A program made the position numbers and the translations under genes. Positions 2,488-63,450 of a DNA stretch of 64,000 nt are shown here, one piece after another. Source of the stretch: a virus (taxonomy: Duplodnaviria > Caudoviricetes); the IMG/VR virus record IMGVR_UViG_3300028832_000096. The stretch is one strand, 5' to 3'. Positions within the stretch are counted from its first letter, which is position 1. Each line of letters begins with the position of its first letter. The notes beneath the pieces were generated by a model. The model made no database searches. It saw nothing but the letters and a program-made list of their open reading frames with translations, and was not told where the DNA came from.

Positions 2488-3420
2488 TTACTCTGGATAT
2501 GTTTCTTGAGTAAGCTCTTCTGTTGTCATATACTGAATAGGTTTAACTATAGAGAAGTAAATTTTCTTTAACCTATATGTATAACGCAATGCTCTAGTTA
2601 CCTGAGTTTCAGAGAAATTATCTTCACTGCCCTCTCTATCGCGGCATGATAACCAATTAAATGTGTAGAATTTATCTGTTTGAGATTCTACTTTTATCCA
2701 GCCAGTGCCATCTACACCTTTTGCGTTAGAATAATCACTCCATCTGTCGTAAGATTCTTCTCTGTGAATCTTTACTTTAATCCAAGTGTCTTTGCCAATT
2801 ATTCTAGTAACATCGTAGTTATCAATTTTTTCATCCCAAGAACGTGTATCCATGTAACCAGGATTAGGTGTAGTCATGTAATCTTCTTCTTTAGGTACTT
2901 CATTGTTAACTTTGCGAAGCAATGTATCCCAGTCGATAACCTCTATCTTACTGAATAACTCATAAGTAGCTTTCATAACCTCAAAGTCATCAGCTTCAAG
3001 TAATTCAGTTCTAATCTGAGGTTCCTTGCGAAGACTCAATGTCTCTGTATTATAATCGAAATATAAATAGATATAGTAAGTCCAATAAAATCCTCTAAAA
3101 TCATTACTATAGCTCTTAGCGTTACGATACCTTGTAGGGTTATCTGCTTTTGGAGAACGATAACTCATATAGATAAAATAAGTGTTTCCACGACTAGTAT
3201 ATGAATCATGCTTTACTTCAAATACTGCACCTGGAAGTTTTGCTAAATCGTATGCAACAAGTGATTTAAGCTCTTCAGCTACTTTGTTGATATAATTATC
3301 GGAATCTTCCTTGAATTTTGCCTTTTCAGATTCCCAGGCAGTTTTCTGCTCATTGTACTTCCGTACATAAGCATCTTTTTCACGAAGTAATCTTGTTCTT
3401 TCAGAAGCTCTAATAATCAT
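2488..3420 (-). CDS. Hypothetical protein with leader variant MIIRAS
   Basis: Start moved to ATG 3420 (GAGGG RBS, directly after upstream stop); N-terminal coiled coil. Confidence 0.7.
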   Translation of the reverse strand: MIIRASERTRLLREKDAYVRKYNEQKTAWESEKAKFKEDSDNYINKVAEELKSLVAYDLAKLPGAVFEVKHDSYTSRGNTYFIYMSYRSPKADNPTRYRNAKSYSNDFRGFYWTYYIYLYFDYNTETLSLRKEPQIRTELLEADDFEVMKATYELFSKIEVIDWDTLLRKVNNEVPKEEDYMTTPNPGYMDTRSWDEKIDNYDVTRIIGKDTWIKVKIHREESYDRWSDYSNAKGVDGTGWIKVESQTDKFYTFNWLSCRDREGSEDNFSETQVTRALRYTYRLKKIYFSIVKPIQYMTTEELTQETYPE

Positions 3421-3421
3421 A

Positions 3422-3688
3422 TCAAATACCCTCGTAATCAAAGATTTGAGTGATATCGTCATCAGAATAACCTAAATCGGAAAGTCGACGATATATGTAT
3501 GCTTTAGCATCATCCTTGTTCGGAAATAGTGCAATAGCTTCATCTTTTATAGAGTCAATTTTCTCTAATTCATCAGGATTGAAACTACAAGTAATGTCAG
3601 TGGCACTTGTAATTTCCTCATCAGACTTGAATTGGCTCATCCTTAATTTAAGTGCTGCTAAGAAATCAGATACATTATCATATATCAT
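3422..3688 (-). CDS. Hypothetical acidic protein
   Basis: 88 aa, tightly packed; internal ITSA/ITCS motifs. Confidence 0.65.
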   Translation of the reverse strand: MIYDNVSDFLAALKLRMSQFKSDEEITSATDITCSFNPDELEKIDSIKDEAIALFPNKDDAKAYIYRRLSDLGYSDDDITQIFDYEGI

Positions 3689-3689
3689 A

Positions 3690-5345
3690 TTATTCTACCT
3701 CGTATTCTTTACCTTCAGTAGTCTTTATCTTTACATAACCTTTGTTCTTCTTTATCAACTGAGGGCACTTCTTTTCATCGCAGATAAGTGTGCCTATGTT
3801 ATAGAACTCATAAGGTTCATCATCTTTTTCCCACTTGATGGTAATATTAGGACAATCATCAAATACAGATTCACCTAATGTTGTTTTAGGATAGATAGTT
3901 ACTGTACCTGCATAATCATTATCAGCAAATGAGTAGTTACCTAAATGAGCTCCGTTAGGATTAATGTCGATTGATTTTAAGAACTTGCAATTTCTAAATG
4001 CGTTACTACCAATTTGAACTGCGCTTCTTAAATCAATAGTTTCTAACTTAGAACCAGAGAAAGCACCGGCACCAATAACTGTTGCATTGTTTAAATCAAA
4101 ATTAGTGAAGAATGTTCCTTGGAATGCGTGTTTAGGAATCTTAGTAACGCCACCAGGAATCTTAATAGCTTTACCATCTTCACCTACACCGGCACCGTTA
4201 AATATCTTTACGCCGATACGAGTTACGCTATCAGGTAACTGTTCCTCTAATGAAGCGCAATCTTCAAAACATCCTTCAAGTACATTCTTGAGATTTGAAC
4301 TGTGCTTGATGTGCTTAAGGTTTTCGCAACTAGCGAATGCATATTCTGAATAAGTAACGACGCTATCAGGAATTTCAATAGACTCTAAAGAAGTGCAGTT
4401 CCAAAAAGCCCTTCTAGGAATTGATGTGATTGTATTAGGAAGCTTGACAGATTTCAAATTAATGCAGTTATAGAATATCTCATTGCGCAATTTTGTAAGG
4501 CTGTCAGGAAGTACAATCTTTTCAACAGATTGAGGGAATTTTGCTTCAGGCAAAGCAGTCATTTCATCAGGAACTATAATTTCTGTAGCATCATCTGCAA
4601 AGCCCAAAACAGTCGATGCTCTATACTGAATTCCGTTTTCAGTCTTAAGCTCAAAGAACTTAGAAATAGCAGGATGTTCTTCGCAGAACTTATAAAAAGC
4701 ATCCATGCCCTGAGAGTCATCATGTATGTCGTACCAAGAGTTACTCTCAAAATGTAATTGATACTTCTCGTTATAATCAGAAGTATTGATAAAGACATAG
4801 AGAGGGCCCTTGCGGGTGTAACTATTATAGTAATAAGGGTCACCTTCGTATGCTGTGCACCAAGTGGCCTTTGTTCCACCTACACGAGCAAGTGAAACAG
4901 AACCAGGATAAGTAAGAGGAGTCCAAACTTCCCAAGGGCCGTCCTCAACTAAGAATTTTTTATCAACGTCACTTGCATGATGTGCTTGTTTCTTAAGCAG
5001 CTTAGCTTTTTCTTTTTCAGTAAGTTCTCTGTTACCTACTGCTTCAGTATCTGTTAAGAACTCATCTACTGTTTTATATTGGTTAAGGTCATTCTTAGGA
5101 TATATCTTGTAATTCTGCAAGAAATAACCTAATGCATCTTTTACATTAGTATACTGTTCCTTAGTAAGATTGCCTTTCTTAATTTGTCGAAATAACCAAG
5201 GACAATATTTACCTCCCTTGCCTGCTTCAAAATTAGCAGAAGGGTCTAATTCAACAACTTCCTGAAATTCAGAATCTTCTAAATCCGGAGCATCTTGCTC
5301 TTTGAGTTGTTGCAGTGTCTTTGCGGCTCTGATGTAAAATTTCAT
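3690..5345 (-). CDS. BspA-type leucine-rich repeat protein with N-terminal WCTA/PLY (PcfJ-like) domain and MKFYIRAA leader
   Basis: Repeats such as LKSVKLPNTITSIPRRAFWNCTSLESIEIPDSV; TWCTA...GPLYVFI...KYQLHF in the N-half. Confidence 0.8.
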   Translation of the reverse strand: MKFYIRAAKTLQQLKEQDAPDLEDSEFQEVVELDPSANFEAGKGGKYCPWLFRQIKKGNLTKEQYTNVKDALGYFLQNYKIYPKNDLNQYKTVDEFLTDTEAVGNRELTEKEKAKLLKKQAHHASDVDKKFLVEDGPWEVWTPLTYPGSVSLARVGGTKATWCTAYEGDPYYYNSYTRKGPLYVFINTSDYNEKYQLHFESNSWYDIHDDSQGMDAFYKFCEEHPAISKFFELKTENGIQYRASTVLGFADDATEIIVPDEMTALPEAKFPQSVEKIVLPDSLTKLRNEIFYNCINLKSVKLPNTITSIPRRAFWNCTSLESIEIPDSVVTYSEYAFASCENLKHIKHSSNLKNVLEGCFEDCASLEEQLPDSVTRIGVKIFNGAGVGEDGKAIKIPGGVTKIPKHAFQGTFFTNFDLNNATVIGAGAFSGSKLETIDLRSAVQIGSNAFRNCKFLKSIDINPNGAHLGNYSFADNDYAGTVTIYPKTTLGESVFDDCPNITIKWEKDDEPYEFYNIGTLICDEKKCPQLIKKNKGYVKIKTTEGKEYEVE

Positions 5346-62115: not shown

Positions 62116-62423
62116 ACTCTTTCTGCCTCGTCTAGCATCTGTTTAAATTGTGCCCATTCTTCTTTATCATATTTAGGTCGGCAATATGTCGATGTCCATT
62201 TAAGTTGATTATCTTTAGTCAACATGTAATCTTCTATACAGCCGCCCTCTCTAAGTAAAACATGAAGATAGCCCTGATTATTTATGTAGAAAATTTTCCC
62301 AAATTTCTCATTAACATAAAACTGATTAGGCTTATATGACCGCTTATCATTTGTTAGCTTCTTGTAAGTTTCATAAGCTTCACCGTCATACTTACCTACA
62401 GATGCTTTGATATACTTCTTCAT
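62112..62423 (-). CDS. Hypothetical protein, MKKYIKAS leader
   Basis: 103 aa. Confidence 0.75.
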   Translation of the reverse strand: MKKYIKASVGKYDGEAYETYKKLTNDKRSYKPNQFYVNEKFGKIFYINNQGYLHVLLREGGCIEDYMLTKDNQLKWTSTYCRPKYDKEEWAQFKQMLDEAERV

Positions 62424-62429
62424 AAGGAA

Positions 62430-62801
62430 TTACCACAAATCAAATGCGTTAGCAACTGCTTCTTCTGCTGTAGCTTTTTGAATGTTTTCACCGTCATAGC
62501 TACTTCTAACATATACTGTGTCTACATCAGTAAATGAGAAACCAAATTCTTTTAATGCATCTGTAAAAGATTCTACATAAGGATACTGGAGAATTTCTTC
62601 ACCGTCAACTTGACCCGTATGTGGAATTTCCTGTAACCAACCCTGCTGGTCATTATAATCAGGATTAATGTAATCATAAATAGCTACAGGTGTTAACGAC
62701 CAAATCATGTAGCTGTCCATGCAATCATCACCAAACTTCTCTTCAAACCTGCTAAACTTTGCAGCATAGAGAATATTATTATCACTTACAACCAACTTCA
62801 T
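62430..62801 (-). CDS. Acidic hypothetical protein
   Basis: 123 aa, AAAGGAGAT RBS. Confidence 0.7.
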   Translation of the reverse strand: MKLVVSDNNILYAAKFSRFEEKFGDDCMDSYMIWSLTPVAIYDYINPDYNDQQGWLQEIPHTGQVDGEEILQYPYVESFTDALKEFGFSFTDVDTVYVRSSYDGENIQKATAEEAVANAFDLW

Positions 62802-62823
62802 AATATTTATCTCCTTTGTTAAA

Positions 62824-63450
62824 TTAGATTCCGTTAGGTAATTTTGTTCTCTTATCTCCAGTTAACTTGGAATATTTAAAAATGTTCCTAATATGTTGCC
62901 AAAACCAGTGACCTTTCGAGGGACTTGCAACAAACTGTCTCCAAAGCTTTGACGGTACGTCATAATACATGTAGATATCATCAGGGCCGCCGTTTGAGCC
63001 CTTAAACTGTATAATCATGTCACCTACTTTATCATTCTTAGGCTCAAATGCGTAACTCCAGATATTGGATGATTTAACTCTAATAAGTTTCTTTATAAAA
63101 TCACGAGATGAAATTGCTGCAGTAACAATCTTTTTACCATTTACAGTAATGCTAGAATCAATGGGCTGTAATTCAATAGAAGCAACTCCATAGGTTCTTA
63201 AAGTTTTCTCAACAAAGTCGATAAACTCTATAGGTTTTTCAAAATATATTTCTTCTAAAAACATTGCGTCTTTGTATACGCTAACTATTGCTTTGTTGTC
63301 GAGTAGTTCGCAATAAATAATAAGATTACTACTTACTTCATCCTCGAGTGCATCAATACGCCGGAAAAAATTCATTTCCAAGGGTTCAAAACCTAGCATT
63401 GTAATAGCGTCGATAAATTCTGTGTAATTAGATTTTATTGATGTCTTCAT
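62824..63450 (-). CDS. KTSC-domain protein
   Basis: RVKSSNIWSYAF...IQFK...YMYYDVP..LW..F...PSKG..F...IR. Confidence 0.75.
   Translation of the reverse strand: MKTSIKSNYTEFIDAITMLGFEPLEMNFFRRIDALEDEVSSNLIIYCELLDNKAIVSVYKDAMFLEEIYFEKPIEFIDFVEKTLRTYGVASIELQPIDSSITVNGKKIVTAAISSRDFIKKLIRVKSSNIWSYAFEPKNDKVGDMIIQFKGSNGGPDDIYMYYDVPSKLWRQFVASPSKGHWFWQHIRNIFKYSKLTGDKRTKLPNGI

Follow-up and report, generated by a model that had tools for sequence, protein, structure and literature searches.

A portable N-terminal tag on unrelated proteins of an uncultured large phage as a probable T4-type head-loading propeptide with a predicted cut after alanine or serine

The stretch of DNA analyzed in this study (IMG/VR record IMGVR_UViG_3300028832_000096; 64,000 nt, referred to as the window) belongs to an uncultured large AT-rich phage of the Caudoviricetes, and nearly all of its genes are encoded on the minus strand. 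Many of its proteins begin with the same short sequence, MKx[YF][IV][KR][AS], which is termed the tag in the following. The motif was found 19 times in the six-frame translation of the window, in every case (19/19) at the start of a minus-strand open reading frame (ORF). An earlier reading of the letters (the original prediction) had proposed that this tag targets a set of effector proteins to the phage head. All 19 strict starts which it listed translate to the motif on the minus strand, and nine looser starts read as quoted, each with an (I/V)-x-(A/S) site within its first 13 residues. In the checks which it had proposed, the motif lies far above the shuffled control (19 vs. 0.01 expected by chance per window) and is also present in related phages. 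The latter were retrieved with the terminase large subunit of the window (22892..25330, minus strand) as the query, which yielded 11 IMG/VR loci at 54-83% identity, including two contigs rated complete, G1 (200 kb; terminase 83% identical to that of the window) and G2 (175.5 kb). The related genomes carrying the tag are 160-200 kb in size.

The tagged genes are given here by their ranges, all on the minus strand, so that each tag starts at the higher coordinate. Clear domain matches were obtained for two of the strict carriers only. A 551-aa protein with BspA-type leucine-rich repeats (LRR; 3690..5345, MKFYIRAA) matched PF13306 at 8.5e-51, and its orthologues start with MKVYISAA in G1 and MKVYIQAV in G2. 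A 109-aa mini-GNAT acetyltransferase (18406..18735, MKRYIKSS) matched PF13508 at 7e-9; its gene is an insertion among conserved genes downstream of the portal gene. Both domain labels had been assigned from the sequence before and were confirmed, while the zinc-ribbon label of a 111-aa protein (12592..12927, MKIYIKSN) was matched weakly (E 0.009). Neither Pfam nor PHROG gave a match for 15 of the 19 strict carriers, and two more matched weakly. Near the LRR gene, proteins of 149 aa without a known family (7085..7534, MKVYVKAS), 103 aa from the ATG at 7849 (7538..7849, MKRYIRAS), 330 aa (7944..8936, MKVYVKSV), 106 aa (8993..9313, MKMYIKSN; MKIYIKSN in the G2 orthologue), and 148 aa (9310..9756, MKRYIRAS) are encoded, as is a 373-aa polyprotein of four modules (10069..11190, MKVYIKSS). 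The other strict carriers comprise 125 aa (26046..26423, MKIFVKAS), 172 aa (26608..27126, MKIYIKST), 126 aa (27489..27869, MKRYIKSS), 122 aa (33419..33787, MKIYIKAA), 66 aa (37702..37902, MKKYVRAN), 163 aa (38653..39144, MKVYIKAS), 100 aa (60676..60978, MKIYVKAS), 83 aa (60982..61233, MKIYIRAK), 57 aa (61942..62115, MKKYIKSS), and 103 aa (62112..62423, MKKYIKAS).

In the looser variants, the predicted cut is marked by an arrow. A protein translated from the ATG at 3420 (2488..3420) starts with MIIRAS (I-R-A↓S), and another (26427..26606) with MQIKKSKKTINA↓S; the G2 homologue of the latter (141 aa) contains additional DIKAS and SVKAS sites. Short-form variants are MKIYSH (28465..28725) and MKILAS (I-L-A↓S; 30684..30893). 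The remaining variants read MKKHINS (I-N-S; 73 aa from the ATG at 37700, 37479..37700), MKLSRIYSS (37904..38653), MKRLINSA (61235..61909), and MKTSIKSN, the last on a protein with a KTSC domain in its C-terminal part (62824..63450). MARVVSS (36316..37491) is the weakest candidate.

Past the tag, the bodies of these proteins are unrelated, as had been claimed. After removal of the first 10 residues, no BLASTP similarity at E<0.01 was found among the 19 strict and nine loose proteins, with the sole exception of a marginal 45-residue match between the protein starting at 8936 and that starting at 37491. Within the window, none of the portal, terminase, endolysin, and replication genes carries the tag, in agreement with the original prediction. 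The endolysin is encoded at 16217-16690, and the portal gene (19720..21246, minus strand; phrog_213, 6e-11) shows that part of the head and packaging genes lies inside the window.

The third codon positions within the tag are variable. Serine is encoded by TCN and once by AGT (Ser7 of the 57-aa protein), and arginine by AGA and once by CGA (Arg6 of the 83-aa protein). Upstream of the tagged ORFs, a Shine-Dalgarno G at -11/-10 is the only nucleotide signal, and no nucleotide conservation was observed downstream of codon 8. Given the variable third positions, the mixed serine and arginine codons, and the lack of conservation in the flanks, the tag is conserved at the protein level, as had been inferred earlier. 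AAA at codon 2 enhances translation, and the codons of the tag are AT-rich; furthermore, the tagged genes are located in variable regions. These features would suit a nucleotide-level signal, namely a translation enhancer in the 5' coding region or a recombination cassette for gene shuffling. Besides the codon usage and the absence of conservation beyond the Shine-Dalgarno sequence or codon 8, the untagged portal, terminase, capsid, and protease-scaffold genes and the recurrence of the motif inside proteins argue against such a signal, which we regard as very improbable.

Comparison with protein families outside the clade revealed that the tag is a portable protein-level add-on. The 330-aa protein (7944-8936) belongs to a widespread untagged family with 885 matches among 1.8 billion representatives, and MKxYIKS is present only in about six of its closest members. 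In full-length homologues without the tag, the first residue corresponds to about query residues 9-13. An Atlas structure look-up of this family gave nothing usable. Similarly, the nearest homologues of the mini-GNAT protein outside the clade (38% identity) are untagged and start with MLEEK. Within the clade, the tag is maintained: it was kept in 14/14 database homologues of the 163-aa protein (38653..39144); residue 3 varied freely among them, and K, R, Q or H was found at residue 6. A distant homologue of the 330-aa protein (P0142, 329 aa) starts with MKIFVLNES, which looks like a tag ending in glutamate; scans of viral and metagenome contigs yielded no copy of P0142.

Relatives retrieved through the terminase or the capsid protein have 3-14 strict tags apiece, every one of them on the coding strand. 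A degenerate DNA pattern for the tag matched 5-14 times per record, again in coding orientation throughout, and the reversed pattern, used as a control, gave 0-1 matches. The window is collinear with 46.8-113 kb of G1. Many of the tagged genes have been inserted between conserved genes in individual lineages, and orthologues of tagged genes in G1 and G2 retain the tag. Taken together, the tag is found on 48 BLAST-unrelated families in the window, G1, and G2. In G1, about 40 genes start with a short form of the tag, MKIY(A/C/S)(S/N/T). A 33-member paralogue family of this genome (~100-120 aa) is arranged in tandem arrays (113974-116594, 136912-145305, 147823-148439, and 48515-49209) and consists of 32 short-form genes and one long-form gene. 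None of its members gave a Pfam match, and the family is absent from the window. The long and short forms interchange within this family and within one other.

One consensus, (I/V)-x-(A/S/C)↓(S/A/N/T), covers the long form of the tag (M-K-x-Y-I-K-A↓S), its short form (M-K-I-Y-A↓S), the looser starts of the window (such as MIIRA↓S, TINA↓S, MKILA↓S, and IKS↓N), and the linkers described below. An (I/V)-x-(A/S/C) site within residues 2-11 was found in 21.7% of the window ORFs and 19.5% of the G1 ORFs, compared to ~6% at control positions. With P3 denoting the third residue before the cut and P1 the residue just before it, P3 of the N-terminal sites is located at residue 5 (n=62) or residue 3 (n=45), and other registers account for 5-10. 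In both main registers, residue 2 is lysine and residue 4 is tyrosine, and tyrosine is not among the eight commonest P4 residues of 125 scaffold sites. Lys2 and Tyr4 are thus fixed relative to the N-terminus rather than to the cut site, and the tag consists of two parts.

The linkers between the modules of the 373-aa polyprotein (10069-11190) contain tandem sites, VEA↓CGDIKA↓S, VDA↓CDDIKA↓S, and VDA↓CGDVNC↓S. The G2 counterpart has modules 1 and 4 in common with it, whereas modules 2 and 3 are not shared; VEA↓SSYVKS↓A stands in one of the G2 linkers. Modules have been swapped between genomes and also turn up in other proteins. A DarA_C-like label had been among those given earlier. For module 1, DarA_C (PF18789) was not supported by Pfam, with no match at E<=1; a weak structural lead to DarA_C/DpnD-PcfM is left (TM score 0.47-0.49; Atlas model with a predicted local distance difference test score, pLDDT, of 0.52).

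The head module was explored in the relatives. In G1, a 372-aa polyprotein-like protein is followed by a phosphoribosyltransferase-domain protein starting with MKRYVRN, a 497-aa protein, and the capsid protein. The 497-aa protein matched phrog_207 ('head maturation protease') at 8e-19, and its C-terminal two-thirds, the scaffold part fused to the protease, are coiled coil. The capsid protein matched Pfam Gp23 at 1.5e-17 from residue 107 onward; in 16 relatives, the capsid protein has an N-terminal extension of ~90 residues. Genome searches of G1 and G2 with Pfam S78, S77, and Phage_capsid gave no match, and the module was found by PHROG and Pfam scans of the individual ORFs. Likewise, sequence searches of the PDB with the protease, as a single sequence or as a profile, did not retrieve T4 gp21; the fold search alone did. 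For this search, the first 180 residues of the 497-aa protein were modelled with AlphaFold2 from an alignment of 13 sequences. T4 gp21 (5JBL) was the only significant Foldseek match of the model (E 1.3e-4, TM ~0.6), and the protease of Kaposi's sarcoma-associated herpesvirus appeared lower in the same list (TM 0.4). The catalytic residues of T4 gp21 are H85 and S140 (PMC12991175). When gp21 was added to the alignment, these residues fell on the invariant H70 (in GFLGHP) and S125 (in GISIRGAG) of the clade. The protease of this clade is gp21-like (gp21 family, S77, assemblin fold).

The sites predicted from the tag are concentrated in this module. The original prediction had proposed a search for I-x-A/S sites in scaffold and capsid precursors, and such sites are present in the scaffolds, the capsid propeptides, and the protease junction of the relatives. 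With RIKAS, TIKAS, and five further [IV]xAS sites, the G1 scaffold ranks first among all G1 proteins for this motif (p=4.5e-7). The strict form [IV][KR]AS occurs only four times at internal positions in the entire G1 proteome, twice in the scaffold and once in the adjoining polyprotein-like protein. In protease-scaffold genes from 16 related loci (13 distinct sequences), 6-11 [IVL]xA[SGN] sites were counted per gene, against a background of 2.85 per 1000 residues. The ~90-residue capsid propeptides of the 16 relatives are divergent in sequence and rich in sites (SITAA, SINAG, PVTAS, AIKAS, PIMAS, and others), and the capsid protein of one relative starts with MVVRAS. At the level of the motif, the tag therefore ends in the same sequence that is found in the scaffold and capsid precursors, and it is very likely that it contains the motif of the prohead protease. 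The earlier proposal of a cut around (I/V)-x-(A/S) agrees with this motif in the scaffold, capsid propeptide, and polyprotein linkers of the relatives, with cleavage itself being a prediction. A set of small proteins with an acidic core, basic termini, and repeated RP(V/I)RA↓S-type sites resembling the capsid propeptide was also noted (G1 169493-169900, G2 172898-173335, G6 49656-50096); judged by these sites, they may be another processed head component.

T4 gp21 undergoes C-terminal processing and cuts at L/I-x-E (PMC9026906). The end of the protease domain of the clade reads (I/V)-A-A↓(S/T/A), with both alanines invariant, and aligns with KEITE↓S of T4 and RLTE↓S of Bacillus phage HSE3. The IAA↓S junction is homologous to the ITE↓S autoprocessing site, so that P1 has changed from glutamate to alanine. 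The short form of the tag, MKIY↓AS, superficially resembles a site of a different kind. A Prp-type host protease cuts the ribosomal protein L27 of Firmicutes, whose leader has the consensus x-L-x-L-Q-F-F↓A-S-K-K, as well as the capsid and scaffold proteins of Staphylococcus phage 80alpha, and the FF↓AS cut in L27 is the basis of the resemblance. Removal of the peptide by such a host protease is nevertheless hardly credible: the conserved leader x-L-x-L-Q-F-F is lacking in the tag, the residue before alanine in the long form is lysine instead of an aromatic one, and the phages encode a gp21-like protease of their own with the motif at its autoprocessing junction.

In terms of the capsid protein, the closest cultured phages are Bacillus phage vB_BceM-HSE3, Listeria phage LIS04, and Streptococcus phage vB_SagM-GXN1, with 27-29% identity. 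HSE3, GXN1, and an uncultured phage, G10, were compared as distant relatives with a gp23-type capsid protein. Their protease-scaffold proteins are rich in [LIV]xE sites, with 17 in GXN1 (p=2e-7) and 19 in G10 (p=8e-10), each the top of its proteome, and 15 in HSE3 vs. 3 Ala-type sites. Glu-type sites were not enriched in the scaffolds of the Ala/Ser clade, and Ala-type N-terminal sites were not enriched in G10 (1.8% of ORFs) or GXN1 (4.6%). Four small proteins of GXN1, unrelated by BLAST, start with MRL(V/I)(R/K)L(N/T)E(S/D), for example MRLVRLTE. Their genes (PQ819873.1: 98803, 132585, 132841, 134401) are not annotated as tagged in the record, and three of them lie directly downstream of the capsid gene. 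From its sequence, MRL(V/I)(R/K)L(N/T)E looks like a capsid-targeting tag of the Glu type. Across the lineages, the type of the tag tracks the type of the scaffold sites.

These results also bear on the idea that the tag is read as an address or a degron by a factor other than the prohead protease and resembles the scaffold sites by coincidence. It could, for example, be recognized by a sorting receptor or act as an N-terminal degron of the ClpXP type (Met-basic-hydrophobic). M-K-(V/I/L)-Y-I does fit the N-motif-2 pattern of E. coli ClpX. The concentration of the motif in the scaffold, the capsid propeptide, the protease junction, and the polyprotein linkers would be left unexplained, as would the Glu-ending tags in the Glu-type relatives, and we consider a degron or address quite unlikely.

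Two promoter-like motifs were observed in the window and G1. Motif 1, AACCTT(T/A)(T/A), precedes structural genes (portal, protease-scaffold, baseplate, and fibre clusters) by 30-60 nt, with examples upstream of 21246, 25919, 11190, and 2448 in the window. Motif 2, (A)ATCGTTAT, is found ~43 nt upstream of replication genes, with examples upstream of 54856, 45868, 12292, and 8936. Tagged genes stand behind either motif, and the motifs neither assign them uniformly to the late class nor discriminate between readings of the tag; the 122-aa protein (33419..33787) has both motifs upstream.

On balance, we consider it probable that the tag is a head-loading propeptide of T4 type, with a cut after alanine or serine and a greatly expanded set of carriers. 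Its first part, Met-Lys-x-Tyr, fixed to the N-terminus, would probably serve for docking to the scaffold core as the prohead assembles. The second part would be the site of the gp21-family prohead protease, (I/V)-x-(A/S/C)↓(S/A/N/T) instead of (L/I)-x-E↓ as in T4. Tagged proteins would be co-assembled into the prohead and freed by the protease through removal of 5-7 residues, with polyproteins being cut at their linkers. Once freed, the proteins would remain alongside the DNA inside the head until infection, when they would pass into the host. That most of the carriers are injected effectors, as the original prediction assumed, is a more tentative proposal. Equally tentative is the wider possibility of a general delivery platform, in which a 5-7-residue tag and a gp21-type protease re-specified from Glu to Ala/Ser, as preferred by herpesvirus assemblin, might allow tens of proteins and polyproteins, up to a fifth of the gene set, to be co-injected, and in which the switch may aid escape from immunity that senses Glu-specific proteases. 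The cargo of such a platform would include the GNAT protein, the phosphoribosyltransferase, the LRR protein, and the 33-member paralogue family.

Several observations weigh against a head-loading propeptide. The protease, scaffold, and capsid genes lie outside the window, and the evidence on the head module comes from the relatives. The Pfam S77 match of the G1 497-aa protein (7.5e-5) is below the gathering score, and the mean pLDDT of the AlphaFold2 model is only 69. Internal sites are not depleted in tagged proteins once amino-acid composition is controlled (observed/expected 1.06 vs. 1.22 in untagged proteins); their raw rates are lower (p ~0.02-0.06), an effect that disappears with this control. 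The switch from Glu to Ala is a single one on the tree, so that the co-variation of tag and scaffold sites counts as one observation. A cargo of up to 58 proteins, ~20% of the G1 ORFs, would be unusually large for one head, and some tagged genes stand behind the early-type and not the late-type promoter-like motif. Finally, T4 gp21 can cut a cytosolic host protein (PMC12991175), and a protease site alone is thus no proof of a location in the head.

The last three points would suit a tag that is a site of the prohead protease only, with cytoplasmic proteins being trimmed late in infection for activation, inactivation, or timing; many tagged genes are, moreover, located near replication genes. 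We regard such trimming alone as unlikely. The loss of 5-7 residues would hardly switch so many unrelated folds, and Lys2 and Tyr4 are conserved outside the protease site, which argues for a second, docking function as in T4. In addition, three of the four GXN1 genes with a Glu-type tag lie just downstream of the capsid gene, and the head module of G1 contains the linker-bearing polyprotein-like gene and a loosely tagged gene.

Other features of the window were noted alongside the tag. The family A DNA polymerase is split on the minus strand into ORFs at 50175-51722 (exonuclease and N-terminal polymerase) and 47818-49038 (C-terminal polymerase). The ~1.1 kb between them holds an ORF for a GIY-YIG homing endonuclease (49301-50047), and the G2 polymerase is a single ORF of 943 aa. 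The terminase large subunit (812 aa, 22892-25330) has an intein-like insert of ~140 residues, and residues 237-313 matched Intein_splicing below the threshold (E 6e-6); its G2 orthologue (672 aa) is without this insert, and match lengths vary among the relatives. Plus-strand genes are few. One of them (14472-16148) encodes a 558-aa protein with three DUF7487 repeats (1.7e-42) and is located in a 2.5 kb gap of the minus-strand gene series.

If the tag is a head-loading propeptide, M-K-x-Y-(I/V)-x-(A/S)↓S would predict the repertoire of injected proteins of a whole clade of uncultured large phages, and the tagged ORFs without known relatives would be prime candidates for anti-defence and host-takeover factors. 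It would also follow that, among the assemblin-fold proteases, a switch of P1 from Glu to Ala is possible in the gp21 branch, and this would link the maturation-site preferences of phages and herpesviruses. As a packaging tag of seven residues, the tag could be a compact means of bringing foreign proteins into phages of Gram-positive anaerobes, as the T4 sequence has been for E. coli. Host CBASS (cyclic-oligonucleotide-based anti-phage signaling system) can sense gp21 through I/L-x-E loops (PMC12991175). Speculatively, a change in protease specificity might therefore matter in the arms race between phage and host. Within the literature searched, the coverage of which is incomplete, no description of a phage prohead protease cutting after Ala/Ser or of this tag was found.

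Among the known systems, the DarB protein of phage P1 has an N-terminal signal that suffices to load a reporter into the head, and its function as cargo is anti-restriction (PMC9024508). Loading of head cargo by an N-terminal signal would be common to both, and polyprotein module 1 has the weak DarA_C-like lead. The P1 signal, however, is not a short tag on many proteins, and a shared cleavage motif has not been reported for it. In phiKZ, 201phi2-1, and SPN3US, a diverged gp21 homologue cuts 19 or more head-internal proteins at a three-residue motif, with redundant sites in the propeptides (PMC9026906). Many head proteins carrying a minimal protease motif are thus known from these phages, but their cuts follow Glu (S/A-x-E), their propeptides are longer, and a single uniform N-terminal tag is missing.

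The assemblin of herpesviruses has a related protease fold and resembles the protease of the clade in its fusion to the scaffold and in the release by autocleavage after Ala. The release (R) and maturational (M) sites of pseudorabies virus, given as YLQA-T and VQA-S (PMC4498786), are close to Y-(I/V)-(K/R)-A↓S and the IAA↓S junction of the clade. In contrast, the closest structure found here is T4 gp21, and a portable N-terminal cargo tag is not known from herpesviruses.

The closest counterpart is the capsid-targeting sequence (CTS) of T4, a short N-terminal peptide which is the only common part of otherwise diverse internal proteins (PMC3012670). Ten residues suffice to load foreign proteins, with residues 4 and 7 being responsible for targeting and residues 8 and 10 directing processing (PMC9026906). 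IPII and IPIII start with MKTYQEFIAE, and IPI with MKTFKEF. Both systems have one short N-terminal peptide on unrelated proteins, a Met-Lys-x-Tyr/Phe start, an end in the motif of the prohead protease, and homologous gp21-like and gp23-like head genes. They differ in the cut, which follows Glu in (L/I)-x-E in T4 and is predicted to follow Ala/Ser/Cys in (I/V)-x-(A/S)↓S here, in the length removed (10-19 vs. a predicted 5-7 residues), and in the number of carriers (a handful vs. 19-28 in 64 kb and up to ~58 per genome). Particular to the clade are also the fusion of the protease to the scaffold and the polyproteins with their tandem-site linkers, and its phages are uncultured and AT-rich. The portable protein-level tag, the predicted motif in the protease-scaffold, capsid, and linkers, and the analogy to T4 proposed in the original prediction thus stand, whereas its wording 'analogous but distinct' overstated the distance, as the head genes are gp21 and gp23 homologues and the Met-Lys-x-Tyr/Phe start is common to both. 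Since all tested features of the T4 system except the cut after Glu were found in the clade, its tag is best described as belonging to a variant of the T4-type system rather than to a plain member of it.

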